Shown: positions 3,800 through 63,000 of the stretch, in pieces
Layout of the letters: each line of letters begins with the position of its first letter
Numbering within the stretch: position 1 is the stretch's first letter
NCBI GenBank assembly: GCA_964409365.1
Contig: CAYPCX010000008.1
Location: 265 to 64,264, forward strand
Direction: 5' to 3'
Length of the DNA stretch: 64,000 nt
Origin: an uncultured Planctomycetia bacterium
GTDB taxonomy: Bacteria > Omnitrophota > Gorgyraeia > Tantalellales > Tantalellaceae
Made by a program: the position numbers and the translations under genes
Notes under the pieces: generated by a model
The model's input: only the letters and a program-made list of their open reading frames with translations
Told to the model about the DNA's origin: nothing
Database searches by the model: none

Positions 3800-3836
3800 A
3801 GCGAGCGTAAGCGAGCGATGACACCTTGACACTCTC

Positions 3837-23455: not shown

Positions 23456-23477
23456 TTTCCGCCTTTTCAACCCCCAA

Positions 23478-23527: not shown

Positions 23528-23989
23528 CTATGCGTTGTCTTCCATAAGTTTCAGAACCGCTTCCGCGAACTTTTCTTTCAGAGTACGGCGGTCGCCTTTG
23601 AACAGGACCTTCCTGGTCCTGCACTTTTTCTTTGAACAAAACGCTATATACGCCAGGCCGACGGGTTTATTTTTGGTCCCCCCTGTCGGGCCGGCTATGC
23701 CCGTTATCGAGGCCGCGAGATCGGCGGAGAAGACCCACTTCGCACCTTCCGCCATCGCTTTGGCTACCTCCCGGCTGACCGCGCCGTATTTCTTAATAGT
23801 ACCGGGCGGAACGCCCAGCTCGGATATCTTCGCCTCGTTGGAGTAGGCTATTATCCCGCCGGCGAAATAACCGGAACTGCCCGGGACATCGGTGACACGG
23901 TCTGAAACAAGGCCTCCCGTGCAGGATTCCGCCAAAGCCAGGGTCTTCTTCTTGCGTCTCAGGATAGTCCCTATTCTTTCCTCGATCAT
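23528..23989 (-). CDS. pncC: CinA C-terminal domain protein / PncC-like nicotinamide-nucleotide amidohydrolase
   Basis: MIEERIGTILRRKKKTLALAESCTGGLVSDRVTDVPGSSGYFAGGIIAYSNEAK...SITGIAGPTGG, the CinA_C signature. The start was placed at ATG 23989. The longer ORF to 24094 would overlap the 3' end of the giant gene and was rejected. Confidence 0.75.
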   Translation of the reverse strand: MIEERIGTILRRKKKTLALAESCTGGLVSDRVTDVPGSSGYFAGGIIAYSNEAKISELGVPPGTIKKYGAVSREVAKAMAEGAKWVFSADLAASITGIAGPTGGTKNKPVGLAYIAFCSKKKCRTRKVLFKGDRRTLKEKFAEAVLKLMEDNA

Positions 23990-23996
23990 GAAAGGT

Positions 23997-24025
23997 ATTA
24001 TAGCGTAAAAAATAGAGGTTTTGAA
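23997..24025 (-). promoter_or_regulatory. Sigma70-like promoter for the CinA-C/PncC-like gene: -35 TTCAAA, 17-bp spacer, -10 TATAAT, with the -10 ending 7 nt before the ATG (leaderless-type arrangement)
   Basis: Minus strand TTCAAAacctctattttttacgcTATAATacctttcATG. The element lies in the 49-nt gap between the giant ORF stop and the CinA-like start. Confidence 0.45.
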
Positions 24026-24038
24026 GTATCTTGTAAGA

Positions 24039-39000: not shown

Positions 39001-42000
39001 AAGGCCAAAATTTCTTCCCTGTTCTGCCTGAGGGCCTCACGATACTCATCCATCTCTTGCATGTAAGAAGGGTCTCTTTTTTTCGCGGGCCGAAAACCAT
39101 CATCATTCCCGGACCGCCCCCCTCTGCTTTCGCCGTCATCGTCCCGCCCAATACTCGACGTTGATGTTCCGAGGATGGTCTTTCTATGCAGCGGGAACAG
39201 CGTATAGTAGACCCCCTTCCAGAACGCCGTCATGCAGAACTGCAGGCCCGTTAAACGGGCGAAGTTCGCGTTGATCTCATCCAGCACCGCCAGACGGAGG
39301 GCATGAGTACGCGGCAGAACGGACATCACGGCCAGATCTATCATAAAATATATCAGCGACGCGAAGGCTGTTACGGCGAGCAGCAGCAAAGCGCCGTTGG
39401 CCACACTATACATGGCAGAGTGCAAAAATCTTGTTATAGCGGTACCTTCTTTAAGCTCCCCGGCCGTAAAAAGACCCGGCTTGTCGCGAAATAGACCGGT
39501 TATGACCTCCCCGCCGGTCATCTTCAATTGCGTGTCGGGGTCCGCGACCGCGCTGTAACCGAACCTGTCTTCATCATCGGTTACGGCCTCGCCCTTTGCG
39601 TGCCCGCACATGTATGTCAGGAAAAGTTTCTTTTTCGCGGGCGCGGAGAACATGACCGAACTGACTTCATCTTCCGTCATGATACCGTCGGTAGCCTGCC
39701 ATGCCTTCCAACTGCCGTGCCCCATGACAATGATGCGTTCAACTTCGGGTTCGCGGAGCGCCGTCTTCAGGTCGTCCTTTGTCGCGTCCGGGACGACGTC
39801 AAGCTGGTACCCTTTAAACCACCAGTAAGGCCTTAATATCGCGGCGATCGAGATGAAGTCCTCTCGCGTCACCCTTTTGTCGGCGCTGCTCACAAGGACG
39901 GTGATCCTCTTATTTCTTTTAAAAGGACCGGGGTTTAACTCGAGTTTTCCCAGCACGGACATGATGATCCCGGCGACCTTCGTTATGATCAGCCCGCCGA
40001 TAAGCCACGTGACGACGTGGTATGTAAGGAAATGCACACCGAGCGCCGCGACCATCGCTAAACCTAAGAATGACACGATCGTCTTCCACCCGAACTGCTG
40101 GAACGCGCCGGCTCCCATGCCGAGATACACTGACCCGGCGGTATCTTTACTGGCCCCCTCCTCTCGTTTGTCTTCTTCTTCGGCTTGAGGAGCATGAGTA
40201 ACTTTTACGATACCACAATCGCTTCCTTCAAAAGACTCTGGTTTTTCAAAACTGGCGTTAAGCCCATGCGTTGCTGCCAACTCATTAAAAAGATCCTTAT
40301 ATTCATCAGTGAATGGTATGGTAACTACGGCCTGGCCGCCGTTTGCCAGATAACTGCTGACTTCGTTCATAAAGCGGCGGAAAAGACCTTTATCCTCGAG
40401 CCACGAATTAAAAATGATAAGATCGAATTTTTCTCCCTGTTCGATCGGTTCGAACAGGTCACCCAGAAGACAGGTGACCTGCCCCGGTTTTATCAAACCT
40501 TTTCTTTCCGCTTCCAGGACATTTACAACAAGATTCGCATAAAAGAATTCCACTTTATCCGTAGCTACACATTCAGCCCAGGGCATATTTACCGCGCAGT
40601 TCAGTATCTGGACGCCGCTGGCCGAGCCGATATCAAGGATTTTTTGCGCTGATGGGTTTACTATGCCGGATTCTTCGGAAAGGATATACTTACGAAGAGG
40701 CACAGTGGTTCTTGCACCATCCGCGGGCCATGTATTAACAGTGCTCAATATTTCATGAGGCTCCCCGTTCCCGGGGAAGACAGCGGACACGTAACTTGCC
40801 GGAAATTCTGCTTCTTTCCCATCTCTAAATTTACATCTGACTTCGTGAGTATATCCTCCTTGTTCCTTTTCACGAATGTCATAAGATTCCACTTGTATCC
40901 CAATTCTGCCGCCGTCCTGCCGCTTGTCGGCCTCTTGCCCGAACTGCGCGAAGCCTTGTAACATCGTCAAAAACATGCCCTTTTCTTCCCGGGTCAATCC
41001 TCTTTCGGGGTCTAATATCTGCCGCTGGCCCTCCTCGGAAAGGAGTTCCTGAACCTGTTCCGGGGTCATCTCCCCGATCCCGAATTTGCGGTGAACATGA
41101 TCTAACATCTCATGTAAAGCGCCTCTTTCTCTTTCGCTCCATGTCCTCTCCCTGTAATGTACCTTGTAAGTTATAAGGGGATTGCGGCTATAGTAATCGT
41201 CGCTATCGTATCTTCTGTCAACCTCCTCCGAATCGACTATTTCTTTCGTCCGGTCATATTTGAATTCCATTATGTCATCGCACTCTACCAGCTCTTCTAT
41301 GACCTCCTCCCCGGTCACATACCTCTCTTCCAGCCGTTCCCTGGCCTCATCGGAACCGAGATAATAATCCCTTAACGGCAGCACCTTTATAAAGTCGGGG
41401 GCGGCGATGCCGCTTTCCCCACCCATCGGCAGTTCGAAGGTCGTTCCATACCGATCCTCTTCGACCTTTGCGAAACCAAGCCGGGGATATAGATCCTCGA
41501 CCAGGGAATTCCTTTCTCCTTTTTTATAACTGCCGCGGATCCTGACCGTATCCGGACTGCTCCTTTTAATGTCATCCAGAACATACGCGAGAAACGCTTT
41601 TTCCGTTTCCAGGCCGATCGCCCTGCAGCTCAGGCAGAAACTGTGTATGACCGCTTCCCTTTCCATCCTGCTGTAAGACTCGGGATGTAATCTGTGGGAA
41701 TAGGCCACGATAACCCCTACCACTCCGTTATTGCCGAATTTATCTATTAACTCTAACGAATAGATATAGCTTGAATATCCTTCGTGTCTGATAAAAGCCT
41801 CTATTTCTTCCTGTGAAAGACGGTAAAGCGTCGGATTGAACTGATTTGTCCTTTGGGTCAACTGCGCCAACCTTGACGCAAAACCTAGATTTTCAGTCCC
41901 TCTCCGTATTACCGCCACCATTTCCAACGAGCGATAGAAATCCTCCAGGGACCTCGATAGCCGTCTGAGCTCCTCTCTCTGTTCCCTTGCCTTGACCAGT

Positions 42001-45000
42001 TCCGTTCTCCTTTTGTCCTCTCCGGTAACGGCTTCTTTCGCGAAAGCTACGTCCAGTCTTTCGTTCAATCCCGGTATTTCTCCGGCACTTCCGGTAAACT
42101 CCAGGACCGCCACCTGCGGCAATGCGCTGCTCACCAATTCCCTCTCCTGTGGCCTGTCATCAACAAAAACAAAGGCGTTCAATCCGATATCTAATGCCTG
42201 GGCTATTTCCTGTAAATTCGTCGCCTTGTCCTGCCAGTTAGCCTTGATCACGGCGAAGTCATCTTTTTCCAATACCATGCCGGGAAGACTTTCCAGAGCT
42301 TTCTCAACGTCTTTGAGTTCGTTCTTGCTGCTTATCGCCAGGATCACACCCCTCTCCTTCAGTTCCTTCACTTTTCTCTGAAGGTCCGCGTGCGGGGCGG
42401 TCACTTCGATACCGGTGAGACCGTCCTCACCCACGACCCCTTTCCAGAGCACCCCGTCGCAGTCCAGAACAAGGCATTTCTTGAGCGCGTTCGCGTCGTA
42501 TGCCCTGATCACATGGAGAATATCGCCTCTTATTGCCCCGATACGCGGCAGGTCCAGGCGGGTAGCTTTCCCGTCTTCAAAGAGCTTCTTCAGTTCTGCG
42601 AAAGCCGAGAGAACATTCGATGTTTTTCCGCACTCCATATTGTCGTCGTCGCGCCATGACCAATTAGCCCTGCCGGCGATAGCCGACAAATGGACCAGAT
42701 CATCGCGGACGATCATCCCGGCCGCGAACATCTCCTGCATTATTTCGAACGTGCCGTTAACCTCCCCCCACTCATAATCATATCCGTAACCGCCATGGCT
42801 CCACTGTAATGCCGCATCTCCTATACGGATCAACCCGGGCACATCAGCCGCCTCTACATGACCCTCGCGTAACAACTCTCCGGTTATGACGGAAGCTTCC
42901 CGTGTCAACTTCTCTTTCACTTTTTGCAGCGCGTTCTCTGCCTCTTGCCGTTTGTCGGCCTCTTCGGCTCTGGCGGCTTCTCCAAGAAATTCGTCAAAAG
43001 TGCCGATCTGTCGCACTAACACCTCAGGAGCTGTACAGCTTATGTCGATATAGTAAATATCGAAATAGCGCGCGCAGGTATTTATTTTATAAGCCGCCTG
43101 CTCTTCTAAAGCGGCATCCGGGTGTTCCTCTTCCCACGCAGAGATCTTCGCGTGCGCTTCGTCTACATCGCTGCCTTCTTTTAGCCTGTACAAAAGGCCG
43201 CGCCCTTTCTCGTTGAGGATAATATCCGAGGCGACATATCCCGATGCTTTCGACCGCTTCATGACCAGGATATCCCTGGAACTGATACGTAATCCCATCA
43301 AGCCGCCGGGATGGGCGTGGAATGACGTAGCCATTTTCCCCCGCATTTCCGGATGATCCAAAAATTCCGACAGACAGCCTAATCTGTGCAAATTCCCTTC
43401 GTCGTCAAAAATGACGGATCTTGTGCTGCCGCGGGATACTCTCCATCCTTCATCCTCGTCCATATGTATGTATCCCGATGCTTCGAGTTGGCATATATCC
43501 GTTTCACTGCTTTCCGCCTGCGGCGACAGTTCTGTCAACGACAGGCCCGTCCGCTCTTTAGTGAAGAATTCTTTCAAGGTTAACTTTTCTATGCCACACC
43601 TTACGGTGGTATCTTCCAGCCTATACGCACCACCGGCGCCGGGTTTCTCTTCCGAGCGGACTCTGTGTTGCCTTCCCTTGAACTTTAAATATGGGCTTCC
43701 TTCCTCAGGATACTTCAACACCCCTACCGGCGCGTTCTTCTCTGAACCGACAAAGAATTCTATAATGTCACCGGGATTCAGGTAAGCACCCGTAGCAAGC
43801 GTCTCTAACAACGGATCTCTTATCTCTTCCAGCATCCCTTTCAAATTTTTCATATATAAAGCTGAAGATATCCCGCCCGAGAAAACCGTTTCATCTTCGA
43901 TCCCGCCCCCGTCCAGCCGCTTGTTGTCTTTCTGTTCGAGATCCTCCACACCCGTTCTATTTCCGGCTTTATCTATGCGCCATACCCCTTCGGGCCTGAT
44001 CTCGTAAAGGTGGCCGTACTTGAAGACCTGCTCTTTGTCATCCCATACATAAGGCGGAACTACCGAGTAGATCCTTTCTCCCTTGTCTCTCTCTTTCTGT
44101 AGTTCACGTGTGAATGTTTCGCGAATGCGGTTTATATCTTTACCCTGGCCATGATAATCAGGCATTAAAATATCTACATCCGTCTCTTTGGCCTCCGATG
44201 CTCCCTCCATGATATATGGGGCGCGATATTGCCGTTCCCTCCCGATCACCGACGAACCGATCAGATAGACCGGCGGGACCCTTGAAGGCGGGATCCCCTC
44301 TTTCTTTACGTTTTCGGCGGTAGTTACCATCATCCCGTGCAGGGTAAGCAATAAAGACCTGTTCGCCTCTTTCGGCTTTGATACATCCCGAGACGGTTTC
44401 AGTGCTGACAATACGTCCCGGAATAATTCGACCAGTAATGACAATATACCGAGGAACGATGATTCCGGAACTTGCGCATTGTGGGTCAACGCCCCTTCCG
44501 CTAAGACGTCCTGTCTTTCTTCTCCGATATCGCCTGCCTTATCCTTTATGAAGTTAATGAACGGCCACGGATCATTCCTTTTAAAACTGAGAGCACTGTA
44601 TTTGCCGTACCATTCGTCCTTGTAACCGACCTCCGGCAGGCCTTCACGGGCGCGGATCCTGTTCATGATCTCCCAACCCGTCCTGTGGTTGGCATCCTCG
44701 AACGGATGCAAAGTAAAAAAGGCCAGGTGAGCCGCCGCCGCGAAGTTGGCCGGCTCTTCCAGTTGGACCCCTCTTTGATTGAAAAGTTCTACCATGCCGG
44801 CAAAGAAGCCGAATTGACGCGCCTTCGCGCGTTGTTCCGGAGCGCTGTTGATCCAGTCGACAAACTCCCGTCTCAAAATAGCCATTATTTCCACACCTTC
44901 GATAAGCATCCACCTTATACTATCCCCCGCGAAAAACGGGAATATTGTCCAGGTCCGGTACATCGCAACGGGCCTGTCCCTCAAGCCGGGAAGCCCCTCA

Positions 45001-48000
45001 TTTATCGCCTTTATGCTGCCTTCGGTAAACCTGGCCGGTCCCGCAGCCGCGCTATCCGCGTGCCGGACAGCAGCAGGTTCCGAGACTTCAAGGCCGTATT
45101 TATCTATAAGTTCCCGAACAAGTTTCTCCTGGTTTCTGGTAAGTTTTTCCGCATCAACCGCAGTATACTTATCCTTCACCAGCATCCCTGCTTCCGCCAA
45201 AGTGTGTTTCGCTCTTTCCCGGGGCATATACAAAGACATTTCCCTGCCCCCTTCGGTCAACTTTCTCATGCAAAAAGCAAGCAACTGGTGCCCCAGACCG
45301 ATGAACTCTCTTTCCCCTTCAAACTCATTCCTGTTCCATGGAGCTAGCTCTCTTCTTTTTAATTCATGCTTTTCGGCATCGTAAAAAGCAATGGCCTGGA
45401 TCTGGCCGTCATCCGACACGACATAATAACAGCTAAGATCGTTGCCACTTCGCAGGTTTGTATTGATGTTTACTATTCTCTGATACTCAGGATACCCGCG
45501 TTTCCTAAAACTTCTATCCACAGCTTCAACAAAATCAGGGTCATTAATATTTTCGGCATGAAAAACACGAAGGGCCTTTATCTTCTTTACCCTGTTGTCC
45601 AACACAAATAACTTGTCTTCCTCTGCCGCGTGCCGGGCCTGGGCCTGTTTCATCGCCTTCTCCGCAATATCTCTCGCGGTGGCTTCATCGCTGAGCTTTT
45701 TCGCTCTGTCCATCTCTTCTTTAGCGAGGTACATCGTCCCGCGGCCGGATGCCTTTTTCGGCTTCTTCCTACCGTCACTTGAGGACGTTCCCTTTCGGGA
45801 CACTACAAAAGAAAGTTCTTCCGGCTTAATAGAGCGTTTCTTCACCACACAGATGCTATAACCAAGTGGTCGAGGAACAGAGGAAACCAGATCGAACCCG
45901 CAGGTACGCAACATCCCGCTAAAACCTGTCCTATCCCATTCAATGCCCTGTCGCAGGCTATTCAGGGTACGCTGATTATTGAGGGTAAATGCCAATTTTA
46001 CACCGCATGGCATCACACCGCTTATGAGCATATGAAGGCGCTGGTAAAGTAGTTCCGAAGAGAACGGTTTGGTATTCTCAAAACAACCCCTCAAATAAGC
46101 CTCCCTATCTTCTTGTCTAACAAGCTTTTGGGACTCATCGCTTATAACGCGTAGTTGCTCTTCTATTAAAAGAGAATCCATATTGCGTATAGCCAGGTCG
46201 AACGTACCGTGGTAACTATCTATTAATTGAGAATAGTTGTGTGGTCCGGACTCACCCCTAACGAGTTCTCTTCTCAGTTTGGCATAATTGTTGATCGCGC
46301 CACAATCTACCGTAAATTCGGTTCCGGAATAATCAGATGAGATATTGCATTTATCCAAAATACCCGCCAATTTCCGGAAACCGTCCTTATCCTGATACCA
46401 TATCAGGAAGTCCAACCCGTTTTCTCCGGACCTTACCTCTATCGCATAGATCTCTCCGCTCAGGCCCATGATCTCCAGACCGTTCAGTTTCAGTAGGTCT
46501 TCATCCTTGAAGTCTAATGGATCCCTTTCCTGCAACCGAACGGTCTCTTGAAGGAACCGATCCGTCCCGGCGGAATCGTGTTCGCCTTTGATCGCTTCGA
46601 TCACCGGCGTCATGACCTTTATATAATTCGCGGTAAGGCTCGCGCTTACGGCTATCGAATCACTCAGCGCTCTTTCTTCCCCCTCTGAGATCTGCAGGTC
46701 CTTAAGATCTATGGAATTTATTTTTTCCATTAGAGCTTCAAGTGAAACGGCAAAATCGTACGCATTAAGAATATCCTTTTTGTAATCATCCAATGTAGGC
46801 GTTTCATCGACCTCATCCCGGAACATCAGGATGCTCTGCCAATATTTATATAAGGAGCCTTCGGCGGGATACTGCTCCCTTCTCAATGCGTCAAACTCGT
46901 CGACATATCCGGAAAATGATCTTACCGTTTCATTGTCTGCCGGCTCCTGAAGAAGGTTGAACTGTTTGGTGAACCAGTCTATGCCTGTCGTCCGGAACCT
47001 GAAACCGTCCGCGGACAGCCTTGCCATCGTATTCGCATCACCGATAGCAGCAAGCGCATTGTCACGGTAAGGGGAAGGGCCGTCCGCGCCGCGATCCAAG
47101 AAATACCAGCCTGATTCACATAACACCCTTCCTTCCTCGACCAGGCTATCAAGAAAGTTTTGTGCATCTTCTTCCGCTATACCCGCTCTTTCGCCGACCA
47201 CTACAAAATCTAAAACGGCAGGGGCAAGATCCAGGGTTTCGAGTATTTTCTGTTTATTCTCCTCTTCCCCTTCGCCTCCCTTCCTAATAAACGCCGTTCC
47301 TATTGCCATTCCTATTATTATGCCGAGCATTAGCAATAACCCGATCCCACTACTGAATCCAGCTGTCTTAATAATGCCGGGTGTTGCTGCTGGAAGCTGG
47401 GGACCGACCAAGGCAGATACACCAAAACCAGCGGCGATGCCGACACCCACGGCAACCAATATCCCGAGGACATCTTTGCCTTTCCCTCCGCGCTTTGGAT
47501 CGGTCTCTTTTTCACCCCTTGTTTCCGTGGCTTCTTTTTTCCGCTTTTGCATCGCCTCATTCAGCGCCTTCTCGTAAAGATCCGGCAAATATTTCTCCAT
47601 GTACTGTTTAGCCAAATCGCGTTGTTTTTTCTTCTCATCATCCTTTTTTTCTTCCTGATCTTTCCTGCGTGCTGCTTCCTGCTGCTTTTGCTTCACATCA
47701 GCCAATGCTCTCTTGTAAACACTCGAACCCGGATACGCTTCCTTTAAATATCGTTCGGCTACTTCGTGCCGTTTTCTATCATCCGTCCCTTTTTTCCGTG
47801 CCGCCATACCGAATACAACAAACAGAGCCGTCGCAACAACGGGCCATTGAGAGCTAAGCCAGGCGGAAAGCCGGGCGGAACCGCCGGATAGGCCGAGTAC
47901 CCCAAAAACAGCCTTTAAGACGGCTTTCACCATATCGCCAAGGGGGCCTGACACAAGCATTATGATAAAACCGGTTACGAGCACCGCTACGACAATATAG

Positions 48001-51000
48001 CCGAATTCCCTGCGGCCGAATTCACGTTTGAACGGCCCGGGTGTGATACTGTAAGACCTCGCAATGCGGCTCTCGGTTCCGGATGGGACGTCCTGCCTTT
48101 CACCGCTTCTTATGTCATCGGGCTGTAGTAGTGCGGGAGCTGGCGTCTTTGCCTTCTGCGGCGCGGGCGCCGGCGGACGGGCCAGGGCCGTCCGGCAAAA
48201 AGCCCCTATAGCCCTTTCGCCCAACTGCTTTAATCCGATACGTGTTTCGGCGATATGCATCCCGACCACGTTGCCCCGCGATATCCTCCTGGCGTTCTCC
48301 TGCAGTTCATCCTCCGACAACATGACATCCGTATCGAACGATACGAACACATTCTCGCCTTCGAGATCATCATCCATGACGTGCCGGGACATCCTTGTTT
48401 TCGACTTGAGCGCCATGAAAAGAGCAATGTTATTCCGGACCAGCTCTTCCCTGATATTTTCAAAAGTGGAAAATTTCTCGCCTTCTCTGGTCCTGTCTGA
48501 AAGATATTCGATCGCGCGGGCTATGCCTTTCTCCTGGTTTTCACCAAGCCCGCCCAGAAGGCCCAGGAACTCTTCCATGTCGAATCCTTCTATCCATTCA
48601 TCGATGAACCTGAAAAAGCCATCAAGGGGTTCCATCTGCGGAGAACCCGTTATGGACAACTCCCGGCCGGTCAAAATGCCCTTTGCAATTCCAAAAGGCC
48701 AGAATCCCGCGTCATCGAACCCGATTGAATGTGATTCCCCAGAACCTGATGAAGACTCCCTGGAACCAAAGTCTAAATGGTGATCCAGCGAAACGGCCCT
48801 GAGGGCGCCGCCTGCATATGCTTCCTTGAGGGCCTGGTAGAATGGAAGCGAAAACCGGTGCTGTTCCTCCAATAATACGGGAACGGCCCCTTCGCTGAGG
48901 GCCGTGTTAACGGCATGCCTGAAATAATCAAGCGCCGTTTCGTAACTCTGCGCCATCGCCCCCCTGTCGGGGGTGACTATTGAATGAATAACGGCGCCTT
49001 CCCCCAGAACCTGTCTTATCCTGTTCGACGGCATATTCCTGACAGAAAAGTTCATTACATAAAGCCGCGGGCGTTGGGCCCGGAATTTCGCCCGGTTCAG
49101 CTGTTCTTCGTCTTTCTCCGGGTCGGGGCTCACGGAGAGATCCCCGCCCCAACCGTATCCACGGGCTTCCCGTATCTTTGCTATGGTCTCCCTGGCCTTT
49201 TTCCGCGCCTCTTCCGGGGTCATTTTCGGTCCCGGTCTTTCGAATTCATCCAGGGACTTCCTGTATGATCCATCGAACCTCTCTTCTATTTCCTCCCTGG
49301 AGAATGATAAAATATCCTTAAGCGCTTTTACGTTCCCGTATCCTTTGCCGATGATCTCCTCTATATCCGTTCTTCCCGTATCGACAGGCCTGCCTACCTT
49401 TTCAAAAACTTCGAAATCCCCGACCAGTTTCAGTCTGATCCCGACCTCGGTCTTTATGAGGCGTATATTCGCTATGTGATGGTCGTAATGCATCCTTTTG
49501 TCACGGTCAAAATACTTGCACCTGTGGCCTACGTATCCGAGGTGGTGGATCGCCGCCGTGATCTCCGCGCTTTGATCTACGATCATCCCGTCCAGTTCCC
49601 CGCGGGTTATTCCCAGCTCTTTGACCAGGCCGTCAAGTATTGACGGCGAACAGAACTCGAGCCTTTTTCCGTCCTCATATTCAAAAGCCATGACGCACAA
49701 GGGGCTTTCGCGGTCAAAGACCTCTTTTTTGCCGTAAAGATCGTAAATACCGGCGGGGAACTTTTTGTCGAAAAGCGGCCTCATGCAATATTCCCTGTCC
49801 GGGAAAGCGCTTAATATGTCCGAAGCGATCGCGCGCCGCTTCTTTGTGAGCACTTTTTTCTTGTCCTCTTCTTTGCCGGGGATAACGACCTCGAATCGAA
49901 AGGCGATATTCCCTTTATCGTCTTTCCCGAAAATGACATGCCTGCGGAAAGACTCCGTTATCGGGCACATGAAAAGGTTGGAGCCTATTTTGACCGTCAG
50001 GCCCTCTTCCAGGGCATATTCAAGAGGCGCTCTCGGGTCTTTACTTGTCAATTCGAACGGAAATCTCTCCCTCAATGACGTTGCCAGCTTGAAGAATTTT
50101 CTCGCGTTAGTTTCATTCTCAAAAACGGCATCCCATGCCTGGGCAGGGGTGTTTATTTTCTTTGAGATATAAAGTTCTGAAGGGGCTTTTTTCCGTCCTT
50201 TGAAGAGAGCTGCGTGCGCTGCCAGCAAAGAAAGGAAAAGCAATGCGGAAACCGGACCAAAGCTGCCTTTCACCACCGGCGGGGCGAACGCGGGGTGGCT
50301 GAGCCAGCCGGAGACCTGGGCAAGCAATCCGGGAGCTACAACCGCCGCCAAGCAGATAGCGATACCCGCCAATACCACCAAAGCAACCCCGCCCACAAGA
50401 GTATTTCCCTGGTCTTTTGGTTTATTCTTTTTCTCTAATTTTTCTATTTTACGCAAGCAGGCCAGGGCGAATACGCGCACCGCTTCTACTTTCTCCTCTT
50501 CCGTTCCGGCTTCTTCGATCCGCGCGATCTCTTGCCCCAGTAAAGGCTTCACTACTAAGTCATCTATCTTTACGATTTCCCTAAGCGCCCTTGCGGCTGC
50601 CCTGTGTATATGAACGTTTTCATATGGTTCGATCGTTGGATCATCCGTGGTCAAAACATAAGACAGGATCTTCAACAAAAGACAACAGCTTTTCGATACT
50701 TTCCGTCGCTCTTCTTCGGGTTTAAGAGGATCTGACGCATCAAGCATGCGCTTTTCAAGCCTTATTAAAATATCATTTAACATCAAAACACGCGTACTGG
50801 CGTCTAACTTGAAGAATTGCACGAGGTGTTTATCGGCAACCAGGTCACCGGAATCTATCTCAGGCGTCTCGGGCTGTCCGGATCCCCCGACAGCCAGACC
50901 TAATAACGCGAACGACAGTATCCCAGCGAAACCACCAAAGCCCTTCAGGACCGGCGGGGCGAACGCGGGGTGGGCGGCGAGACCGGAAAGCTGGGGAAGC

Positions 51001-54000
51001 AGTCCGGCCACGGCAATAATAAGAACCCCTAAAATGACCACTGAAACAAGAACCGGTGTGAGCGCCGCCCCTTGCGCCCTGTTGTAGGAAACGGGCTGGA
51101 CCTCGACCAGTTCTTTATCTCTTTTCCCTTTCTGGTAGGTCACACCGATATGCCTTTGAGCTTCCCCGACCACATCATATCCGGGCTGGAACGCCCTCAG
51201 ATGCGGGCTTACCTTAAGAGCATCAAATACACTCAGGATCTCATCAGTGGTGGCGTTTAACATGGACGCAAGTACCCGGACGAGCGACTTGCGGTAATCT
51301 AACCCATTATCACGGATGGCACCCACAACCCTTCTTGCCAACTCTTGTCTGGGCGGAGGAAATTCTGCTAACGCGTTCTCGATAGCCCCTTCAACAGCTT
51401 CTTTGAACTCATTTTCCATAGCCGCTATCGGCGGTGATTCCGGCCTTTTGCTTGAAACCACCATACTGTATATTCCCCTCTCAGCTTCAATTTTGTGCGG
51501 GTAAACAGGAATGATCCCCGGCCACAACCGGACTACTTGGGCAGCCTTTTCCATTATGTTCAAGGGAACCTGGTAATCGCCTTTTTCCCAGTGGGACAGC
51601 GCGTTCTGTGAAACATGCTCACCATCTTCACTTAATCTTTCCGCAAATTCCGCATGGCTTAATTCCAGGCTCTTACGGAGCATCTTCAACCTCTCCCCCG
51701 CTTTGTCACGATACAGGCCTGCCACCATTTGCATGACACGCGGAGAAATCGAACGTATGCCGCGTTCCCAGCTGCATATTGTGATCTTCGGTATGATCTT
51801 TTCCGGATCCAGCTGTTCACCGAATTCCGCCAGATACAAGCCCAGCGCCATCCTGAACGCCCTCATCATTTTTCGTGACTGGTCCCGGTAGGTCATCTCT
51901 GTTTTATCCATGATCTCTAATGGGATCATATTCTTGCCGGTCTCCCAGCTGCTGACCGTTGTCGCAGGCACGGGGCTTTTTTCATTCAACAATTTCCCGA
52001 ACTCGTCCTGACTTAAGCCGAGCGCTTCGCGTAACACCCGCATCCTTTGCCCCGCTTCTACCCGGTAAACTTTTTCCGCGCTTTCCATGACCTCGAAAGG
52101 AATCTCAGTCATACCCTGTTCCATCCCCCCGACTTTGGGCACATCCATATAGCCTTCCTTGCTCAGCCGTTCTTCAAACTCTTCCTGAGATAACTTCAAC
52201 TTTTTACGGATCGTTTTCAATCTTTTCCCCGCCCGGCCACGGTAAAGCTTTTCCGCTTTCTCCATCATATCGAAAGGAACCGGGCTCTCACCCTTCTCCA
52301 GAGCCTTGATCTTTCTGTGATGCACCGGATACTTTTCATTCAGCAGCATCCAGAATTCTTCCTGAGTCATCCCTAACCCCACACGGAACCCTTTTAACCT
52401 TTTTCTCCCGCGTTCAAGATAGAATCTCTCCGCATCCTTCATGCGCTTGGAAGGAACGGTATATTCCCCGCGTTCCCATATGCCGAGGGTCCTCGGATGT
52501 ATGGGGTTTTTCTTGTCCAGTTCTTCTCCAAATTCTTCCCTGGTCAACCCAAGTTTTTCACGGAATTCCCTTAATCTTTTTCCCGCAAGGCCTGGGTAGA
52601 TCCTTTCCACGTTTTCCATCACTTCGAGCGGAACCGGGCAATTACCCTGCTCCCATAGCGACACCATGTCCAGAGATACATCTCTTTTGTCATCTAACAG
52701 TTTGCCTAATTCCCCCTGGCTCAACCCCAACATCAGCCGGATATCCCTTAATCTATTTCCTGCATGACCGCGATAGACTTTTTCCGCTTCCGTCATTATG
52801 TGTAAAGGAACACGGTTTTTGCCGTTTATCCACTGGCTGAATGTGCCGCCATAAACAGGATCTTTATCGCCCAATAACTTTGCAAATTGACCCTGATTTA
52901 AACCCGACCTTACCTGCAATATCTTTAGCCTTTTTCCCGCGCGATCGCGGTAAAACTTCTCTACCGCTTTCATGACAGCGAAAGGAATACTTCTTACACC
53001 GCTTTCCCATTTGATAACGGCGCCTACACGTACTGGCTTTCCGATATCCAGCTGCTTTGCAAATTCTTTCTGAGTCAAACCCAGGCTTTCCCGGAACGAG
53101 CTCAGCCTTTTCCCTGCCCGACCGCGGTAGAGCTTTTTCGCATCGTCCATCACGTCAAAGGGGATCTCGCTTTCACCGTTTTCCCAATCTCCTATCTTCC
53201 CCGGACCTATGGGATCTTTTTCGTCCAGCTGTTCCCCGAATTCTCTCCGGGTCAAACCCAGGCTTTCCCGGAACGTCCTCAGCCTTTTCCCGGCCCGATC
53301 ATGGTAGAGCTTTTGCGCGACTTCCATAATATGTAGAGGGACCGGATGCGTACCGTTCATCCATTTATAGAACGTACTCGGGTGTACAGGATCATTCTTG
53401 CGCAGCAGTTCCCGGAATTCTTCCACGGCTAAATCCAGTCTTTTCCGGATCGCCTGCAGTCTTTTGCCGGCAGTTTTCCCGGGAGATTCCTCTACTTCGC
53501 GCTGTGCCTGGAACATCACCCGGTCCAACAGTTCTTGGTCTTTCTTTGGGTCGGGACTTGCAACGAAATCCCCGCCCCGGCCAAATTCACGGGCTTCTTG
53601 TATTTTTGACCTGGTTTCTCTGGCTTTCTTTTGAGATTCATCCGAAGTCGTTCCCGTTTCTGGTGTAAGCGTGGCCCCTTGTGTCTTGCTCCTACCCCGA
53701 CTGACTGGCCTCTCAAAACGAAATATCGGTGTATCTTTCGGCCTCCTGGCGACAACATGGAGCCATCCGGCTTCCAGCGACTTCGTTCCATTTTTCTTCT
53801 CTTCTTTGATCTTTTCATCCAGAGACGAAAGCAGTATCTTCTGCAGGAACTTTTGCTGCTTCTTATCATCCAGTTTGCCCCAGATAAAAACGGTCACGTA
53901 GGGGTCGGAATAGAAATCTCTCATATCATCAAGGGGTATGCGAACCTTTTTCTTTTCAACCTCAATATCGGTAAAACCCGCCTGCCGGAGGGCTTCTCTA

Positions 54001-57000
54001 TAATCATCCAAAGATCTCGGATGTATCTTCTCGCGCGCGGCTATTATTTTTTGCACTTCATCCAGGCCCACTTTCTCCCGCAATTTGTATATAGCATTTA
54101 TCACGACCGCGTTCATGAAACCGAACATCGGGCAGAGGTTCTCCTTGAAATAAGCCGTATTGAAAGATAAAACGCCTCCCTCATTCATGGCGGAATACAC
54201 TTCCCGGAACACATCCTCATAATCATCTATAAGGTGCATGCCGTTGAAGCAGATCCACACGTCAACAGGTTCAGCCACTTTCTCCGCGAACTCCTCGGCC
54301 ATTCCCTGCACGAACGTTATCCGCCTGTCGCCCCTGAACCTTTTCTTTGCCTCTTCCAGGGATGTTCTATCGGGCTCCAAAGCGGTAACACTGGCCTGGT
54401 CACCCAGACAAGGAAGAAGCACACCTAAAGACCTGCCTGTCCCGGTCGCGACTTCGGCAACATGGCCGTTTTCGCCTTCTATCTCGGCAAGTTTGATAAG
54501 TTCTCTGTTGTTATCATCGCTCCATTCAGCGCCCGCGAACTTGTCATAACCGGACGGCTTCGCAACCTCGTCCTTGCCTTGCCGCGTTATCAGCGCATAC
54601 ACGTCCTTCCCCAGCGTAGCAAAAGTTAAACCTGTCATACCTCCCGCTACCGCAAAACATATGAACACCAGAACACATCCGGCAAGACTGATCGGATAGC
54701 TGCTGCAAAAATAATAAACAGCCCCTACCCCGGACGCCAATGCCAGAAGAAAAGCGAAAATGCCTCCCCGGGTCCCAACGGAGATCTTGAAAGACGCTAT
54801 CTTCTTCCACGGCATCTTCCACGCCAGAAGGATAGCCGCCGCAAGTGCCGCTACTATACCCAGCACCTGAGCGCCGAGAGCGACCACGGCGATAGTAATG
54901 ACAGATAGCCCCCCGAGAAGTTCGAGAAGAGTAACTCCCCGGATCTTTTTGGTTTCCCTTTTCTTGCTCACATCAACTATTAAGATCCCCTCCTCGTCGG
55001 GTTTGGACAGAACGGTTTTGGCCCCTGATGACACAGCGCAAGAGTGGCCCCTTTCAAACCGATCCGGACGATCACGATACGCGATATCTTCAGGTTTGAC
55101 CGCCGTATTCACGAATATCGCCGTTGTTTTGCAATCATTGCTGAGCTTTTCCACCCGTGATTGGCCCTCGGAAGGTATCGTCGAAGAAGGAACTATTATT
55201 AGATCGGCTTTACGCGCATCCCTTGACACTTGTAAATAAGCCGCCTTATCCGCGATTATGCGGTCGGACTCCATGCAAATAAGAGCACAAACCTTGTGAC
55301 CTTTTAATGTAAACCTGCGGTCCTCTGATTCGTGGGAGAATTTTGTGAACTTCTTGGCCCCGCCCATTGTCCGGATGACATAATACGTGATATCCAACCC
55401 TGAATTCACCAGACTGAATCCCAAAGCTATACCCGTCTCACTGGCCACTTTCGTTAAAGCGGACACCCTTTCTTTCTCTTCTTCTTCGGTCCTCAGAGAA
55501 CCCCGGTCCAGGAGCTCAGGGAAAAGCACCAGATCAGGGGCGTTTTCCTTGAATCTTGTTTTCAACGACTTAACTATAGCTGCCATCCTCCGGGTATTAT
55601 CCCCAAAATCTCCTCTCTCGATCTGTGCGCACGCTACCCTTAATCCCCTCTTTCTGACCCCGCCTTTCAGTTCAACAGGGGGGACCAGGCCGGGATACTC
55701 CTCTTTCTGCTCTTCATCCTCTCCCGCGAGCCTTCTCCACTTCTTTTCTTCCTCTTTATTGGTAGTATCTACGAAAAACCCCCGGGGGAAATTCCCTGCG
55801 GCCAGGACCATCATCGAAAGAATACCGAGCATAAATATCGTCATGGGCCATCCTGTCCCGAATCCCGCCATCAATTCGCCGGCGGGCGCGGCCTGCCCGC
55901 CGGATGAGAGCGCTTTAGCCGCTATTCCAATGGTGGCTGCCGCCGCGATGAACATCCCGAGAACAACATTATCGTCATCATCTTCTTCTTTTTCTTCTTC
56001 TTTGAGATCTTCCGCATAAACGGTCGTGAGTATGAAATGCGCCGTCCATTTCACGTATTGTGCCGCTTCATACGCCTCATCATACCCTTTGCCCATATTG
56101 TCTATCGCCTTATTGGACATCTTTTCAAGGCCGGCCAGCTTCTCTCTGGCGTCCTCAAGGACGTTCTCCAGGCCTGCCCTGTTCATGCTCCAGATATCAT
56201 CCTTGCTGAAAGCGAAACCTGTTAGTTTCTCTTCCGCACGGGCAGCACTCTTGGCTTTTCCGGGTCTTTCCCGTTCCAACCTGGCATCAACTATACTTAA
56301 CTGGTCATCGACCAGGCTTTGTATTTTCGCGAATTGTTCATCGGCCTTCATCCAGGCGATCAACCCCTTACCCAGATCAAGCATCTTTAAAGCGTGGCTG
56401 TAATGCTCGGCTGCTTTTTCAGGGTCGTTATCCCGGACGGCGTCACCGCGTTCTTTCTCTCCCACGACATCCTGCTCTAACCTCTCCAACTGTTCGGTCT
56501 TTCCATCGTCATTCTGTGACGACCAGGAAGTAACGCTTTTAAGGTCTGATATCACTATCGGCGGCTGTCCGTTGGAAACACGCTCTTTATTAGACTCGGC
56601 CAGCAGGCTCTTCAATGTATATGGCGCGCATCCCATCCTCGCCATCATTTTCCTCGCGATGGCCGTACCTTCATATTCAGCGCTCACTTCCTGATACGCT
56701 TTATTGAACCTCTTGACCGTAAAGTGCTTCCTGCTGAATACAGGCGCGGGGAGACCTTCTTCTTTACGTCTTTTTTCATCTTCTTCTATTAACCTTGCGA
56801 GGACCACATCGTTGACACCCAAAGCCTTCTTTATCTTTGCCTGCATGGGATAGTCCCCTTCTTTTTCCAGTATTTCCTCATACACCTTCCTGAAGTCATC
56901 GACCGTCAGCGGTGCTCCCCATTCCCGTGCCGGTAAGAAAGTCGTAAGGGCCACCAGCGCAATCACGTTGAGAGGGCCGAGCATATTACAGAGCACGTAA

Positions 57001-60000
57001 AGAAGCTGGAAGAGACATCCTGAAACAAACGCGAATATCCCCACCTGGATGGAATACACAAGGAGATTGCTTTGCAGCCACCGGGGCAGTTTGAACTTTT
57101 CCTGGAGCCAGTCGATGATCTTGTGGGTCCATTCGTGGGGGAGGTCGATAAGTTTTCCCAATATGGAATCGTCCTTATCCAGTTTGATCTTTTTCGTTCT
57201 AAGATCAAAAGACGCGGTCTCGCGGCGGTCAAAGAAAACGGAAAAACCTCTTTTTTGGGGAATCGCGTGCGTCGGCGTCGACTCAACGATAGGTATATCC
57301 AGAGCGCCGCTCTCTATTGCCCCGCTTACAAGAAGCAAGAATCCGGCCAGGCCAAACCCGATCCAAATGGCCGGGTGCAAGTTCCAACTCGCGGCATAAA
57401 TAGCACATAACCCCGGCACGACCGCGACCCAAACATCAAATGCAAATGCCGGGACGCGTATCATAGCATCCGTATCCAGGTTCATGCGGCCTATCATCGC
57501 TCTCAAAAAGAGCAGCACTCCCGCCGCGCCGAGCCCGACCGATACGGCCGGGTGCAACCCTAATACTATGGAAAGAACGGAAAGAGTCCCCGCAGCAAGA
57601 CCTGCCCGCGCCGCGCCCCGGATGGTGGATTTCTGCTCCCCTCCCATCTTTTTTTTCAATCTTTCTATTCCGGCTGCGACTTTTTTCCGCTCTTCTGTTT
57701 CAGCCATTTTCTGTTCTTCTACCCTTGCAACTTCTTCCAGACAAATAGCTTTTTCTTTTTCCGGCAGTCTTTCAACAAGAAGTCTGATCTGATCAGCCGT
57801 CTCTCTTACAGCATCTTCCGCCACAAACTTCCCGCCACTGAGACTGTTTAATTGTTCCCTTATTGTTCTCAAATTTTTGTTTTTATTGACTTGCCTTATC
57901 TCTTCGTCTTTTTGATCTTTTTCTTTTTCGGCTTCGTCGATCAGGTGTTCTATGTCTTCCGGTATCCTCAACTGGCGCAAACAAGCAATGCAAGCTTCAA
58001 TCTCTTTAGCCTTTTCCCGGAGTTCTCCCCATGGGTCTTCCCCGTCCGGATCGATCTTTCGAACATCATTCCGCAAAAACTCTAACCTTAATAATGCTTC
58101 ACCTATCTTATGCATCCTGATCTCTTTGCCTTTTCGGTCTTTTTCGATCACGGCTTCATGCACGGCTTCACGAACCAGACGATTACTTCTCACAAATCCA
58201 AACTGGCGCAAACAAGCAATGCAAGCTTCGATCTCTTTAGCCTTTTCCTGAAATTTCTCCTCCGAGCCCTCTTCTGCCGGATCGATCTCTTGAACATCTT
58301 TCCGCAAAGTCTTTACCTTTGAGAATGCTTTACCTACCTTATTCATCCTGTCTACTTCAGCTTGCAGTTTCTCCTCCATTTCAGCCGCTTTACCGGGATT
58401 GAACGCCGATAACTTTTTCAGCGCTTCCCTGGCCTCACCGACCTGAGGCAGTGAACCATAATCCTCTTCTGTTATCACAGAAGACATCATGCTCATGGGC
58501 ATGTTAACTTTATTCAGAAGCTCTTTATATCCGGTGCTGCTCTGCTCGAATCGTTTCGTGAGAGCCTCTTCGGTCATCATAGACAAGTTGTTCGAATCGC
58601 GTTCTGAGGCAGGTTTGCTTTCCCCGTTGGCCTGGAGAGCGTTTTCGATCCCCTGCACCACGTCATCTATTTCGGAAAGTTTCCGGTTCACCTCGGCCAT
58701 GGCTGCCGCGGGATCCTTCTTATAATTTGCCAATAATCTATTCTTAGCCTTGCCGACTTTTTTCCCGGTTTCTGTTTCTTTAGCCGTCTGTTCGGCGAAC
58801 TTTTCCAGGGATTGCCCGATATCGGAACAGGCTTTGATCTCTACATACGCTTGTTTCGTTTTTTCGGCTGCCTGTTTCAATCGCCCTAAAAGTCCGTACA
58901 TGCGCGCACAGACAATATCGGCATACATCTTTGCCAATCCATCCTCACCGGTAAATTCGGGAACAGTGTGACCGGTTTCCTGTTCCAATCTCCCTATGCC
59001 GCTTTCCAGCATCTTGGCAACCCCGGACCCGCCGTTCACCAGCCCGGCTTCATTTATCGAAAGTACCGCGGATAACAGTGTCTTTGCTTCTTCCCCGCTC
59101 CTTTCGTTCATATATGAGGTTGTGTCTTCTTCTATCATTTCCGGGGATAACAGCAAAGCCTCCCTCAGCTCTCTGGCAATCTGCCTCTGATCTTTGCTTC
59201 CTGAAGCGACCATGCTATCAACGAGACACAATGACACTAAGGTCCACATGCGCTCCTGCCACGACCCTTCTCCCTCCAATACCGGCGGTGAGGAGGCAGC
59301 CAACTGTTCCAGACGCCTGATGTCATCCTCTTTTTGCCCAAACCTTGAAGATATCCTGGTAAATTGTTCTTCGCTGATAACGAATTCGCCTCTTTCATCG
59401 ACGGCGACAAGCGCGCGGATCAGCGGGGTCCAGATCCTGGAACTCTCGCTATGGATCAATGACTGGGAAAAGGCGTCCAGCCGTTCCTGCTGGGGACCCG
59501 TCAAATGGAACCAGTTCCACTCTGCAGCAAGCTTTTGCCCCGGGCTCAATTCTGCCGATTTTTCCGCGGCGGTGGATCCATCCTCGGAAACCGGTTCCTC
59601 GGCGGCAGGCTCTTCTGCGGCAACCGGGGCATCCTCTGAATCGGCGCCTGCATCGGCCGTGCCTTCATCCTCAACCGCTTTTTCCGCTTCATCCGGCGAG
59701 GCTGGTGAAGCCACTTCATTAGCCTCGTCCTCGGGGATTATGGGCTCTCCGTCCGCGGCGACCAGCTCCACGCTTTTATCTTCCACGAAATAATCGGGTA
59801 TTCCGAAAAACCTCTCCACCAGGGCTTCCGTGACCCTGACATGGACCAGGTGCCTGAAAATGTCAAAACCGAACCTGTCAAAAGCCGCCCCGTTACCCAG
59901 GAGATTATCGGCTTCCTTGCCCAGATCTTCTACAACTTCCGCGACGATCTCCTTGTGGTCCACGACCTCCTGGAGATACTTGCCCAGGGCGCCTTCCAGG

Positions 60001-63000
60001 TATTCTTTCTTGAGCCGCTCAAGTGCCTCCTCGGCCTCAGCCCCTTCCAGCTTCCGGTCTGCCAACTCCTGCAATTCCGTTTCCACCTGCTTTAGATCCG
60101 GGTTATCGCTGGAGTGGAAACCCTCCAGGACGCCTTTCACGAATATGATCATATCCGTAAAACGATCCTTTGAAACAAGCTCATTTTTCCGTAACTGTTT
60201 GGCCCCTATTTTCTCGGGGTCATCCCTGGACGGCACAAGAATCAATACGGTCCGGCCTTCCGCGAGATCATAAAGGTCTCCCATCGAGGGCATGCCCGAG
60301 AAATACCCCCTTCTCACTACTACGTCGGGCTCTCCCTCGACCTCCCTGTCGGTCCTGTCCTTGACCGAAGCGCAGTTAATGTTCGTCCTTTTTTCCATCA
60401 ACTCAAGTTCGCCACTGTCACGGGCGGCAAGGTACATGCTGCATCCGACCGGCGGCGATGCTCCCATACTGAAACCATTTCTCCACAAGAGGTCCGAAAA
60501 ACCGTCACTTGTTTCCTGGAACTGATACGCCCAGACAAAATCATCCGGATATGTTGCAGTGTATGATTCGGTCTCTTTTTCATTGATGAATTCTCTCATC
60601 AGGAAATACGAATAATACCTTATATACTCGCGAAGATCGTACAAGCATATGTTAAAACTGCGCATGGTCTCGTTATCGAAAGGCACCTCTTTATAGAGTT
60701 CAAGTTCCTCCCGCGCGTTTCCCGCGAACTTCCTGACGGCCGCATGTGTATAAAACAGGAACTGCAGCGTTATCGCCTTGTGCACGTTATCCGGACGGGC
60801 GCCTTGTTCCTTGAGAGCACCACTGAGCTTATCAAGCATCTGCTGGGGCCTGTCGCTGACAACGCGGGACATACCTTTAAGGATATCGCGGTTTTCTTCA
60901 CATGAGAACGGCTTCAACCCCTGTGACAGCTCTTCCATCTCGCGGGCCAGCACGCTGTCGACCTGGTCGGTCTGCTCCTGTAAACTTTCGAGTAACGTAC
61001 TCTTCGCTCTTACCACTTCTTCCCGGGACATTTTCCGCGAGGGATCCGCGGTGATCTTACGCGCTTCCCACACGAACGGCGCTGATACTATCGCCTGCTT
61101 AACGTGATCTTTGATCCCACCGAGCAACCTTTCAGCTTCCCCGGGATGCACGCCTTGTCCGATAAACCCCTCTTTAAGGGCATCGATCCTCTCCTGGATA
61201 GCGTTCGGGGAGCGAGCCCTGTCTTTCTCGATGACTTCCATCCTTTTATCCAGCATATCGATCGTCTCTTCCAGCGTGTAATAAGCCCTGTGCCATTCAT
61301 GCAATTCGTGAAATCTATAGAAAAGTTTGAAGACCTCGTTGTCATCATCCATGGGAGCCCCGGCGTTCTTTAAGGAATCGCGGGTGAAATCCGAGTATGC
61401 GTCAACGTAAAAATCTTGGGTCGCTTGTCTGAACTTTCCGAATTCCTTTTCACAAGAGAGACCCGCCAGCGCTCTTTCCTTGAAAGCAAGGTATGCCAGC
61501 CACAGCTTTCCGCCCTTTTCCTTGTCTATCGTTTCCGGCAACTGTTCGGCAAGAGCGGGCGCGATAGAACGCAGCTCTGACAGCGACCCGTTCATCTCTG
61601 ACAAAAGGTTGTCCAATCTCCGGGTCAATAAGTCCCTGTCCGTGGCATATATTTCCACGTCCATCCAGATATGTGACGCACATGTGGCGATCTCATGCCA
61701 GTATCTTTTGCATTCGGTGATCACCCTTTCCACGTCCTTGATCAATTTGTCGCCCCCTTTGACCGATCCGGATATCTTTTTCCTCAGCTGGTCCATCTCA
61801 TCTTGTATATCCTTGAAACACGTCCCGGGCTCGAGCCGGTCATGGAGTTGAAAATATATCTGTTTCGGCTCGTGGACAAAACTCTCCCATTCTTCGATAA
61901 AAGGAGCGAACCTGAAAACGTATACCACGGTCCCGCCCTGATGAGACAAACTGTAATCCATCGGTCCGCCGAACGCCTCGATAGGCACCTCGATCACACC
62001 GGGCTCACCGCTGACCACTACCCAGAAACCGTCATTTCCCCCATACGAATATATCCCCGGTTTAGGTAATGTCCCGTCCCAGGAGGATATCATCTCCTCT
62101 TTTATCTCCTCCCAGACGCCCTCGGCAAGCCTCAAGGTCCTCTTCTCTTCCTGCCTTAATACCGGTACGACCTCTTCCGCCCTGTATCCCGGCCGGGCAT
62201 AATAAAGGTAGGGGAATTTTTCCCTATATTTTTCTTTCATATTATCGGATAATCCCGCCGTGACCGCATCAAGAAGGATGCCGGGCTTTGCCAGCACGTA
62301 ATCGATACCCGCTTTGGCTCTGCCCTCAGAGTAAAGCGTGACAAACTCGATATTCCCGTTGGCATCTCTGGCGAGCTTTCCACCTGTGATCAGCCTCCCA
62401 CAGCGCGCCGGGTCGTATATGGGCCTTTTCCTTTCACTGTCCCAGAGGTAGAAATGAAGCACCCTTTTTTCTTCATCGGACATGCCCCTCCTGCCGGGCA
62501 TGTCGATCTTGTAACCCTCCTTCATGGTGACCTCTATATATGAAGGGTATAATCCGCGGGCGGGAATGACCTTAAGCGAATCTATATGCTCGTCTTTCAG
62601 TATCCGCGCCATCTCTTCGGGGCTCAGGCTGGGCGCAAAACCGCATTCCTCAAAGAACCGCGTCGTCGCGGGTGAAGGCAAACCTTTACTCTCCTTTGAC
62701 CTGGACACCACTATGTTATAGTTGATATTCTCTTCTTCGAACGGCCTTCTCATCATCTTGTCTATGAACTCTTTCCTGTTTTCTTTTATTTCAGGGTCGT
62801 CTTCCGGCCTTTCCTCAAGCCCTCTTCTTATCATGTCATGCAACCGTTCTTTTTCTCCGTCATCCCTGCCGCAGGCGCGAGAGGCTGTCTTGGCCGAGTC
62901 GAGGTAAAGAAATCCGTAGTCCAGTCCGCAAAGCAACGCTCTCTCATCCCGCACAAGGGCAACTATCCTCTGGTGATCCTCCTCGCCGGTAAACTGCGCG

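Follow-up and report, generated by a model that had tools for sequence, protein, structure and literature searches.

The question raised by this locus is whether two enzyme domains that lie near each other in one very large protein belong together functionally. The window, by which we mean the whole stretch of 64,000 nucleotides (nt) analysed here (positions 265 to 64,264 of contig CAYPCX010000008.1, assembly GCA_964409365.1, from an uncultured Planctomycetia bacterium placed by GTDB in the Omnitrophota), carries an uninterrupted open reading frame (ORF) of 13,300 codons on the minus strand (63941..24039, ATG start), with a uniform base composition along its length (GC 0.48-0.54). An initial annotation, made from the sequence alone, had read the interval 53900-55690 as a nitrilase-superfamily-like domain directly followed by a Rossmann methyltransferase, lying between transmembrane (TM) segments upstream and a helix-turn-helix (HTH) array downstream, and had suggested a functional cassette. 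The interval was placed correctly: with residues of the giant numbered as aa = (63941 - x)/3 + 1, it covers amino acids (aa) ~2751-3348 on the minus strand and is a part of the large ORF, not a set of separate genes. We consider it likely that two enzyme modules, independent of each other and both probably active, are encoded here as parts of a 13,300-aa multi-enzyme protein tethered to the inner membrane, and that their pairing reflects module shuffling and not a conserved two-step pathway.

The nitrilase-like domain could not be recognized from the giant's own copy, for which an NCBIfam scan of the segment returned no CN_hydrolase model and phmmer against the PDB returned noise only; it became recognizable through its family. 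A filter-free HMMER search with aa 2760-3006 against 1.84 billion cluster representatives recovered only 29 proteins (E<=1e-3), and nearly all of these have lengths of 1,200-6,400 aa; one, P0028, is a spurious repeat match. Prefiltered homolog searches with aa 2738-3400, with the methyltransferase alone or with the family alignment returned nothing, which we read as a limit of the prefilter or the collection and not as biology. The family alignment (A1) consists of 32 nitrilase-fold segments, whose members are 23-39% identical to the domain of the giant. When the A1 profile was compared with all PDB sequences, the significant matches were nitrilase-superfamily chains only: the glutamine-dependent NAD+ synthetase 5kha was best (E 1.2e-12, profile positions 2-221 of 235), followed by 9wpn (CJ1056C, 3.6e-6), the hyperthermophilic nitrilase 3ivz (1.1e-5) and about 20 weaker matches to nitrilases, amidases, formamidases and carbamoylases. 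Scanned singly, half of the members (16 of 32) matched PF00795 at E<=1, the best at 6.7e-7.

In the profile-PDB alignments, the FPE, Lys, E-x-R-x-F and LIC-E motifs of the family fall on the catalytic motifs of the solved enzymes. The copy in the giant has the Glu-Lys-Cys triad and the second Glu in canonical order and motif context, the second Glu being six residues past the catalytic Lys; the triad proposed in the initial annotation is thus present and conserved (Table 1). Phe-Pro-Glu is invariant in A1, as is Arg2875, two residues past Glu2873, and Glu2891, two residues after Cys2889, is Glu in 31 of the 32 sequences. An AlphaFold2 model built from A1 (pLDDT 91.7, pTM 0.91) has the four-layer alpha-beta-beta-alpha sandwich of the nitrilase superfamily, and the top 50 PDB matches of this model in Foldseek all belonged to this superfamily (prob 1.0, TM-score 0.61-0.75). 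The lack of a CN_hydrolase hit, which the initial annotation had named as refuting and which literally applies to the giant's copy, is outweighed by the A1 profile and the predicted structure. Family-level evidence, from alignment and model, confirms the domain as a real, very divergent member of the nitrilase superfamily with an intact catalytic site.

Table 1 Features of the giant ORF in the window, with their location and the basis of each assignment
Feature	Nucleotides	Residues (aa)	Strand	Basis
Giant multi-enzyme, multi-TM protein	24039..63941	13,300 in total	-	ORF list, translation, Pfam tiling, hydropathy scan
Upstream TM hairpin, two helices	55791..55967	2659-2717	-	hydropathy scan
Divergent nitrilase-superfamily (CN-hydrolase fold) domain	54948..55652	2764-2998	-	family profile, predicted structure
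Predicted catalytic Glu2809 codon (in VLFPE)	55515..55517	2809	-	Glu 32/32 in A1; same column as the FPE Glu in 5kha and 3ivz
Predicted catalytic Lys2867 codon	55341..55343	2867	-	Lys 32/32 in A1; same column as the 5kha catalytic Lys
Second Glu, Glu2873 codon (E-x-R-x-F motif)	55323..55325	2873	-	Glu 27/32; aligned to the 'DEKRYF' Glu of 5kha
Predicted nucleophile Cys2889 codon (ALICME)	55275..55277	2889	-	Cys 30/32; same column as the Cys in LICED (5kha) and ICFD (3ivz)
Four-helix TM block, two hairpins (H3-H6), between both enzyme domains	54612..54935	3003-3110	-	hydropathy scan
Class I SAM-dependent methyltransferase domain	53907..54524	~3140-3345 (Pfam core 3161-3256)	-	Methyltransf_25, PDB 3dtn
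Array of XRE-type HTH repeats	51522..53474	~3490-4140	-	HTH_31 1e-45, HTH_3 5e-43 (Pfam)
Fic/DOC domain	44658-44807	~6379-6428	-	E 5.5e-6, above gathering score
Second methyltransferase		~7764-7875	-	Pfam tiling
HAD		~8576	-	Pfam tiling
EamA		~8965	-	Pfam tiling
GNAT (two)		~9313 and ~10135	-	Pfam tiling
Bac_transf		~9430	-	Pfam tiling
NTP_transf_2		~11068	-	Pfam tiling

A catalytically dead scaffold, in which the fold is kept for a structural or binding role only, would agree with the loss of the Cys in two relatives (Gly in P0008, Ser in P0026), and the usual dimer may be out of reach for a lone copy held between TM hairpins. The giant's copy has all four catalytic residues, and these are kept in 27-32 of the 32 sequences at 23-39% identity, which speaks for purifying selection on catalysis; we regard a dead scaffold as highly improbable.

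Nitrilase-superfamily enzymes use a thiol mechanism that proceeds via a thioacyl-enzyme, with Glu as the general base and with Lys and a second Glu completing the site. By analogy, Cys2889 would attack a non-peptide C-N bond at its carbonyl or nitrile carbon, with Glu2809 acting as the general base, and Lys2867 and Glu2873 would stabilize and position the intermediate. A thioacyl-enzyme would form with release of ammonia or an amine, and the thioester would then be resolved by water or possibly by an amine acceptor. On these grounds we infer catalytic activity and amidase chemistry: the domain most likely cleaves a non-peptide bond of the amide type by hydrolysis, transfer being the less likely option.

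As to the substrate, the closest structures are Nit2/omega-amidase and compact amidases (mouse Nit2 2w1v, Bacillus cereus formamidase 5g3o and the Pyrococcus horikoshii PH0642 amidase 6ypa), with which the domain shares only 16-22% identity. Whereas these are free soluble enzymes of ~260-300 aa, the domain studied here is a module of a membrane-tethered protein, and its clade differs from them in having a GLPVxWxG-type N-terminal strand (in most relatives), the invariant Arg past the second Glu and a Cys-x-Glu motif. The best sequence-profile match is the glutaminase domain of NadE (5kha, 3dla, 3ilv), which in 5kha is matched over almost the whole domain, and two relatives match the NCBIfam NAD+ synthase model. 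Since the structure is nearest to compact amidases and the profile is nearest to the NadE glutaminase, an ammonia-releasing small-carboxamide amidase of the Nit2, formamidase or glutaminase type is our best guess. Identity as a glutamine-dependent NAD+ synthetase was rejected because no NAD synthetase domain (PF02540) is found anywhere in the giant. Nit2, the closest structure, is an omega-amidase and yields 2-oxoglutarate. Two independent fusions with Glu dehydrogenase give an anecdotal hint at glutamine or 2-oxoglutaramate chemistry: in L006, which BLAST shows to be identical with the L016 ORF, the nitrilase-fold domain is directly followed at ~aa 2180-2620 by a complete Glu/Leu/Phe/Val dehydrogenase (ELFV_dehydrog_N and ELFV_dehydrog, E 1e-50 to 1e-55), and in P0023 the C-terminus of a Glu dehydrogenase lies upstream of it.

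In most relatives, some 10 residues separate the GLPVxWxG motif from the first strand (LRVAxxQ) that follows it. The giant has a degenerate GLVPPVELKGG in its place (55653-55694, aa 2750-2763). This region looks like a clade-specific N-terminal extension.

The Rossmann methyltransferase call was borne out directly. Methyltransf_25 matches aa 3161-3256 with E 1.9e-12 (48.2 bits against a cut-off of 27), and overlapping matches were obtained with Methyltransf_12 (41.9 bits, cut-off 30), Methyltransf_31 (38.9, 27) and Methyltransf_11 (37.8, 21.2) as well as with Methyltransf_23. Among solved structures, the best match is 3dtn (E 8.5e-7), the putative methyltransferase MM_2633: motif I of the giant, VAEVATGTG (aa 3161-3169), aligns to its ILDLGAGTG, and the ALEPD segment with the acidic ribose-binding residue after beta2 aligns to its LVDMS. 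The first Gly of motif I for S-adenosylmethionine (SAM) is replaced by Ala, which is presumably a tolerated variant, and the SAM motif is recognizable. With these features the domain resembles the UbiE, BioC and arsenite methyltransferase type. It differs from them in the NCBIfam scan, where UbiE-, BioC- and UbiG-type models all matched far below their equivalog cut-offs. A homolog search returned no close homolog of this methyltransferase, possibly owing to a limit of the prefilter or the collection. Profile and motif evidence directly confirm aa ~3140-3345 as a clear class I SAM methyltransferase.

The TM segments upstream and the HTH array downstream of the two domains are both present, as the initial annotation had it. 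The methyltransferase was said there to follow the nitrilase domain directly, which is wrong: a TM block of four helices, ~108 aa long, separates them. The nitrilase-fold domain is thereby bracketed by TM helices 45 aa upstream and 5 aa downstream. Lysines and arginines are unevenly distributed around these helices, with none in the loop of the upstream hairpin, six in the 25 aa after it, seven in the C-terminal 25 aa of the nitrilase-fold domain, none in the H3-H4 loop, four in H4-H5, none in H5-H6 and five after H6. Because of the positive-inside rule, these counts suggest three hairpins with short outside loops and a cytoplasmic position of both enzyme domains. This orientation, which we infer by a crude method, would fit the need of the methyltransferase for SAM and the DNA-binding type of the HTH array. 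The methyltransferase module would then be tied to the nitrilase-fold module by two TM hairpins, with both modules facing the cytoplasm. Most relatives have no TM helices within 400 aa of the nitrilase-fold domain, showing that the membrane flanks are not a family feature. The short relatives P0004 (L008) and P0012 (L007), of 493 and 634 aa, begin with a signal-anchor-like hydrophobic segment ~25-57 aa before the nitrilase-fold domain; P0004 also carries a GNAT domain. The orientation of these two proteins is ambiguous, which matters for the question of a cytoplasmic location throughout the clade.

The bracketing by TM helices is a likeness to the apolipoprotein N-acyltransferase Lnt, and the domain might be pictured as an Lnt-like enzyme at the membrane interface that takes an acyl chain off a phospholipid and passes it to an amine acceptor in place of hydrolysis. 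Weak matches to TIGR00546 (lnt) in 11 of the 32 relatives (best E 1e-4) point the same way, and the Cys-x-Glu motif of the clade is presumably common to Lnt. We nevertheless think this very unlikely: the giant has no 8-TM Lnt membrane domain, its charge distribution suggests the cytoplasm and not the periplasm in which the nitrilase domain of Lnt is located, and the TM flanks are missing in most relatives. The combination of a multi-TM membrane domain, a periplasmic nitrilase domain and a TIGR00546 match that defines Lnt was not found here.

Do the two modules form a cassette? Both might work one after the other on a common small-molecule or lipid substrate, as in a deamidation that precedes O- or N-methylation, and be kept together by selection. 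To address this, we cut the giant into pieces and searched each of them against the 29 homologous proteins. Besides the nitrilase-fold domain, these share only a few other modules with the giant (Bac_transf, HAD and unnamed segments), never in colinear order. No homolog of the giant's methyltransferase was detected in the 29 proteins by this piecewise search, and iterative jackhmmer from this methyltransferase over all proteins with the nitrilase-fold domain gave no match, their neighbouring methyltransferases included. A metagenome scan with the window sequence found no close orthologs with the same arrangement. The Bac_transf modules recur in the relatives P0003 and P0006.

We also scanned the flanks of the nitrilase-fold domain in 27 contexts with Pfam (E<=0.01), up to 480 aa downstream. 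Downstream flanks contained Methyltransf_25 and GNAT in three contexts each, and Methyltransf_28, Bac_transf, HATPase_c, Pkinase and Kdo-kinase in one each; GDE_C glucosidase lies downstream in L017. Upstream, class I or PCMT-type methyltransferases were found in about three of the 27 contexts, alongside HATPase_c, HEAT repeats and others; P0017 has HTH_31 there. Single-flank scans gave downstream methyltransferase matches, some of them weak, in five contexts (P0002, P0003, P0009, P0015 and P0016), at a distance of 0 aa in P0002, ~95 aa in P0016, ~190 aa in P0003 and ~280 aa in P0015. These recurrences, together with the apparent location of both domains of the giant on one side of the membrane, are what a cassette would lead one to expect. 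The neighbouring methyltransferases, however, belong to different Pfam families (Methyltransf_25, Methyltransf_28, PCMT-like), stand on either side and at variable distances, as expected from the high methyltransferase background in such giants, and most contexts have other neighbours, such as GNAT, kinases, HATPase, Glu dehydrogenase and GDE_C. A permutation test with a home-made methyltransferase hidden Markov model (HMM) counted five within 500 aa where 2.7 were expected (P~0.06, not significant), in a crude and underpowered design whose HMM seeds came from the flanks themselves and thus favoured enrichment. Moreover, methyltransferase is among the commonest domains of such giants (bioRxiv 10.64898/2026.06.07.730766). 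The non-conserved pairing was observed directly, with varied neighbours, no fixed order and a methyltransferase lacking a homolog in the relatives, and the proposed cassette is not supported as a conserved unit; joint selection on one substrate appears rather unlikely to us. Instead, the adjacency of the two modules would represent the bead-on-a-string shuffling typical of such giants. Since domain neighbours are shuffled in these proteins, adjacency alone is no sign of a pathway.

The family itself is narrowly distributed. An alignment of six sequences (A3) was used to scan one genome per GTDB species and gave 13 loci, nine of which were strong, near full-length matches with 30-36% identity. 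These nine were all located in metagenome-assembled genomes labelled Candidatus Omnitrophota or 'uncultured Planctomycetia'. Four weak, partial loci belong to other phyla and may represent CN-hydrolases of the ordinary kind. In metagenomes, A3 found only eight distant loci, mostly duplicates of P0001.

The host protein agrees with published accounts. Omnitrophota giants have been described as proteins rich in TM helices that string together numerous unrelated enzyme Pfams (bioRxiv 10.1101/2023.11.21.568195; bioRxiv 10.64898/2026.06.07.730766); the commonest modules of the multi-enzyme ones are methyltransferase, HATPase_c, GNAT and HAD (bioRxiv 10.64898/2026.06.07.730766), and most giant genes are reported to contain a divergent SecA-DEAD domain (West-Roberts et al. 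2023, bioRxiv 10.1101/2023.11.21.568195). Like the 'Archaeovorin'-type (10.1101/2023.11.21.568195) and the 'class 1 multi-enzyme' giants (10.64898/2026.06.07.730766), the ORF studied here is a single frame of more than 10,000 aa with many TM helices and a row of different enzyme Pfams (methyltransferase, GNAT, HAD, sugar transferase). It differs in the long XRE-HTH array after the methyltransferase and in that no SecA-DEAD (Pfam E<=0.01), peptidase C39 or dockerin was detected in it. Pfam tiling found more than 10 distinct families across the giant, and the 'structural giant' of which the initial annotation had spoken is in fact a multi-enzyme mosaic. The hydropathy scan gave 61 partly overlapping hydrophobic stretches, which group into ~17 mostly paired helix clusters.

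Several points weigh against our reading of two independent, probably active modules. The giant's own copy has no PF00795 (CN_hydrolase) match at E<=1 in the Pfam scan and does not reach the gathering score, so that the nitrilase assignment is based on the 32-sequence family profile and the predicted structure. The topology comes from hydropathy and the positive-inside count alone. Methyltransferases recur near the nitrilase-fold domain in several relatives, and a loose functional association is possible. Finally, apart from Lnt, the enzymes of the nitrilase superfamily work as dimers, larger assemblies or filaments, and a lone copy held between TM hairpins may be hard to square with dimerization; no paralogs of the nitrilase-fold domain or of the methyltransferase at aa ~3140-3345 were found inside the giant. 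With regard to the first of these points, the PF00795 miss is a sensitivity limit of the Pfam model and no argument against the fold. As to the last, P0001 (the L002 ORF) has three tandem nitrilase-fold copies (aa 214-406, 879-1102 and 1543-1765, period ~664 aa), each followed by a conserved segment of ~400 aa without a Pfam match, and P0002 has two; intramolecular pairing of tandem copies could replace the usual dimer in these proteins.

What is new here is a small, very divergent clade; the nitrilase superfamily and the class of giant multi-enzyme proteins are known, and this is not a new kind of system. We found no mention of a nitrilase or CN-hydrolase module in the two giant-gene papers (bioRxiv 10.1101/2023.11.21.568195; bioRxiv 10.64898/2026.06.07.730766). 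Most of the sequence of Omnitrophota giants is unannotated, and one recurrent 'dark' segment can now be assigned to a nitrilase-fold enzyme with intact catalytic residues, which standard Pfam scanning misses in half of the members, the giant's copy included. The known repertoire of the giants would thereby be widened to include amide or C-N bond chemistry, and the A1 profile can be used for annotation elsewhere. In a bolder view, which we hold to be quite unlikely, the clade would be a new, undescribed nitrilase-superfamily branch, evolved specifically for use as a module in Omnitrophota giants, that performs membrane-proximal amide chemistry on the cytoplasmic face. This might be an omega-amidase or glutaminase step that feeds 2-oxoglutarate/glutamate or ammonia to neighbouring modules, for which the Glu dehydrogenases beside the domain in L006/L016 and P0023 are of note, or else an Lnt-like acyl transfer. 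In the giant studied here, the step would be coupled to the nearby methyltransferase via the shared TM hairpins, making the protein an assembly line and not a collection of unrelated enzymes.

Other parts of the giant and its surroundings yielded minor observations. The repeats of the XRE-type HTH array have a period of ~70 aa by eye, and an Aca2_YdiL-like match was obtained as well. The Fic/DOC domain would be an AMPylation-type module inside a multi-enzyme giant. At 35139-38216 (minus strand, aa ~8576-9601), an HAD hydrolase, an EamA transporter-like TM region, GNAT and Bac_transf (phosphoglycosyl transferase) follow in series, which looks like an envelope-glycoconjugate sub-cluster within one polypeptide. 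Downstream of the giant, ordinary chromosomal genes are found on the same strand: recA, alaS, hisD, hisB, trpE, trpD, a pyridoxal-phosphate-dependent enzyme of the PALP family (possibly trpB), an M16 peptidase, phosphoglucomutase and lepA. Two small genes on the minus strand intervene before recA. The first (23528-24094), whose start overlaps the last 56 nt of the giant, is CinA/PncC-like by eye (ESCTGG motif), and the second (22883-23470) appears by eye to be a 2H-phosphoesterase (LigT/ThpR-like, two HxTL motifs). An identical AlaS is encoded on the contigs k141_351798 of ENA ERZ27256770 (162,665 bp) and Ga0180431_10000154 of JGI 3300017987 (90,874 bp), where recA and hisD again lie next to it; the contig of the giant is thus present in two public metagenome assemblies, which give the full genomic context of the giant gene.

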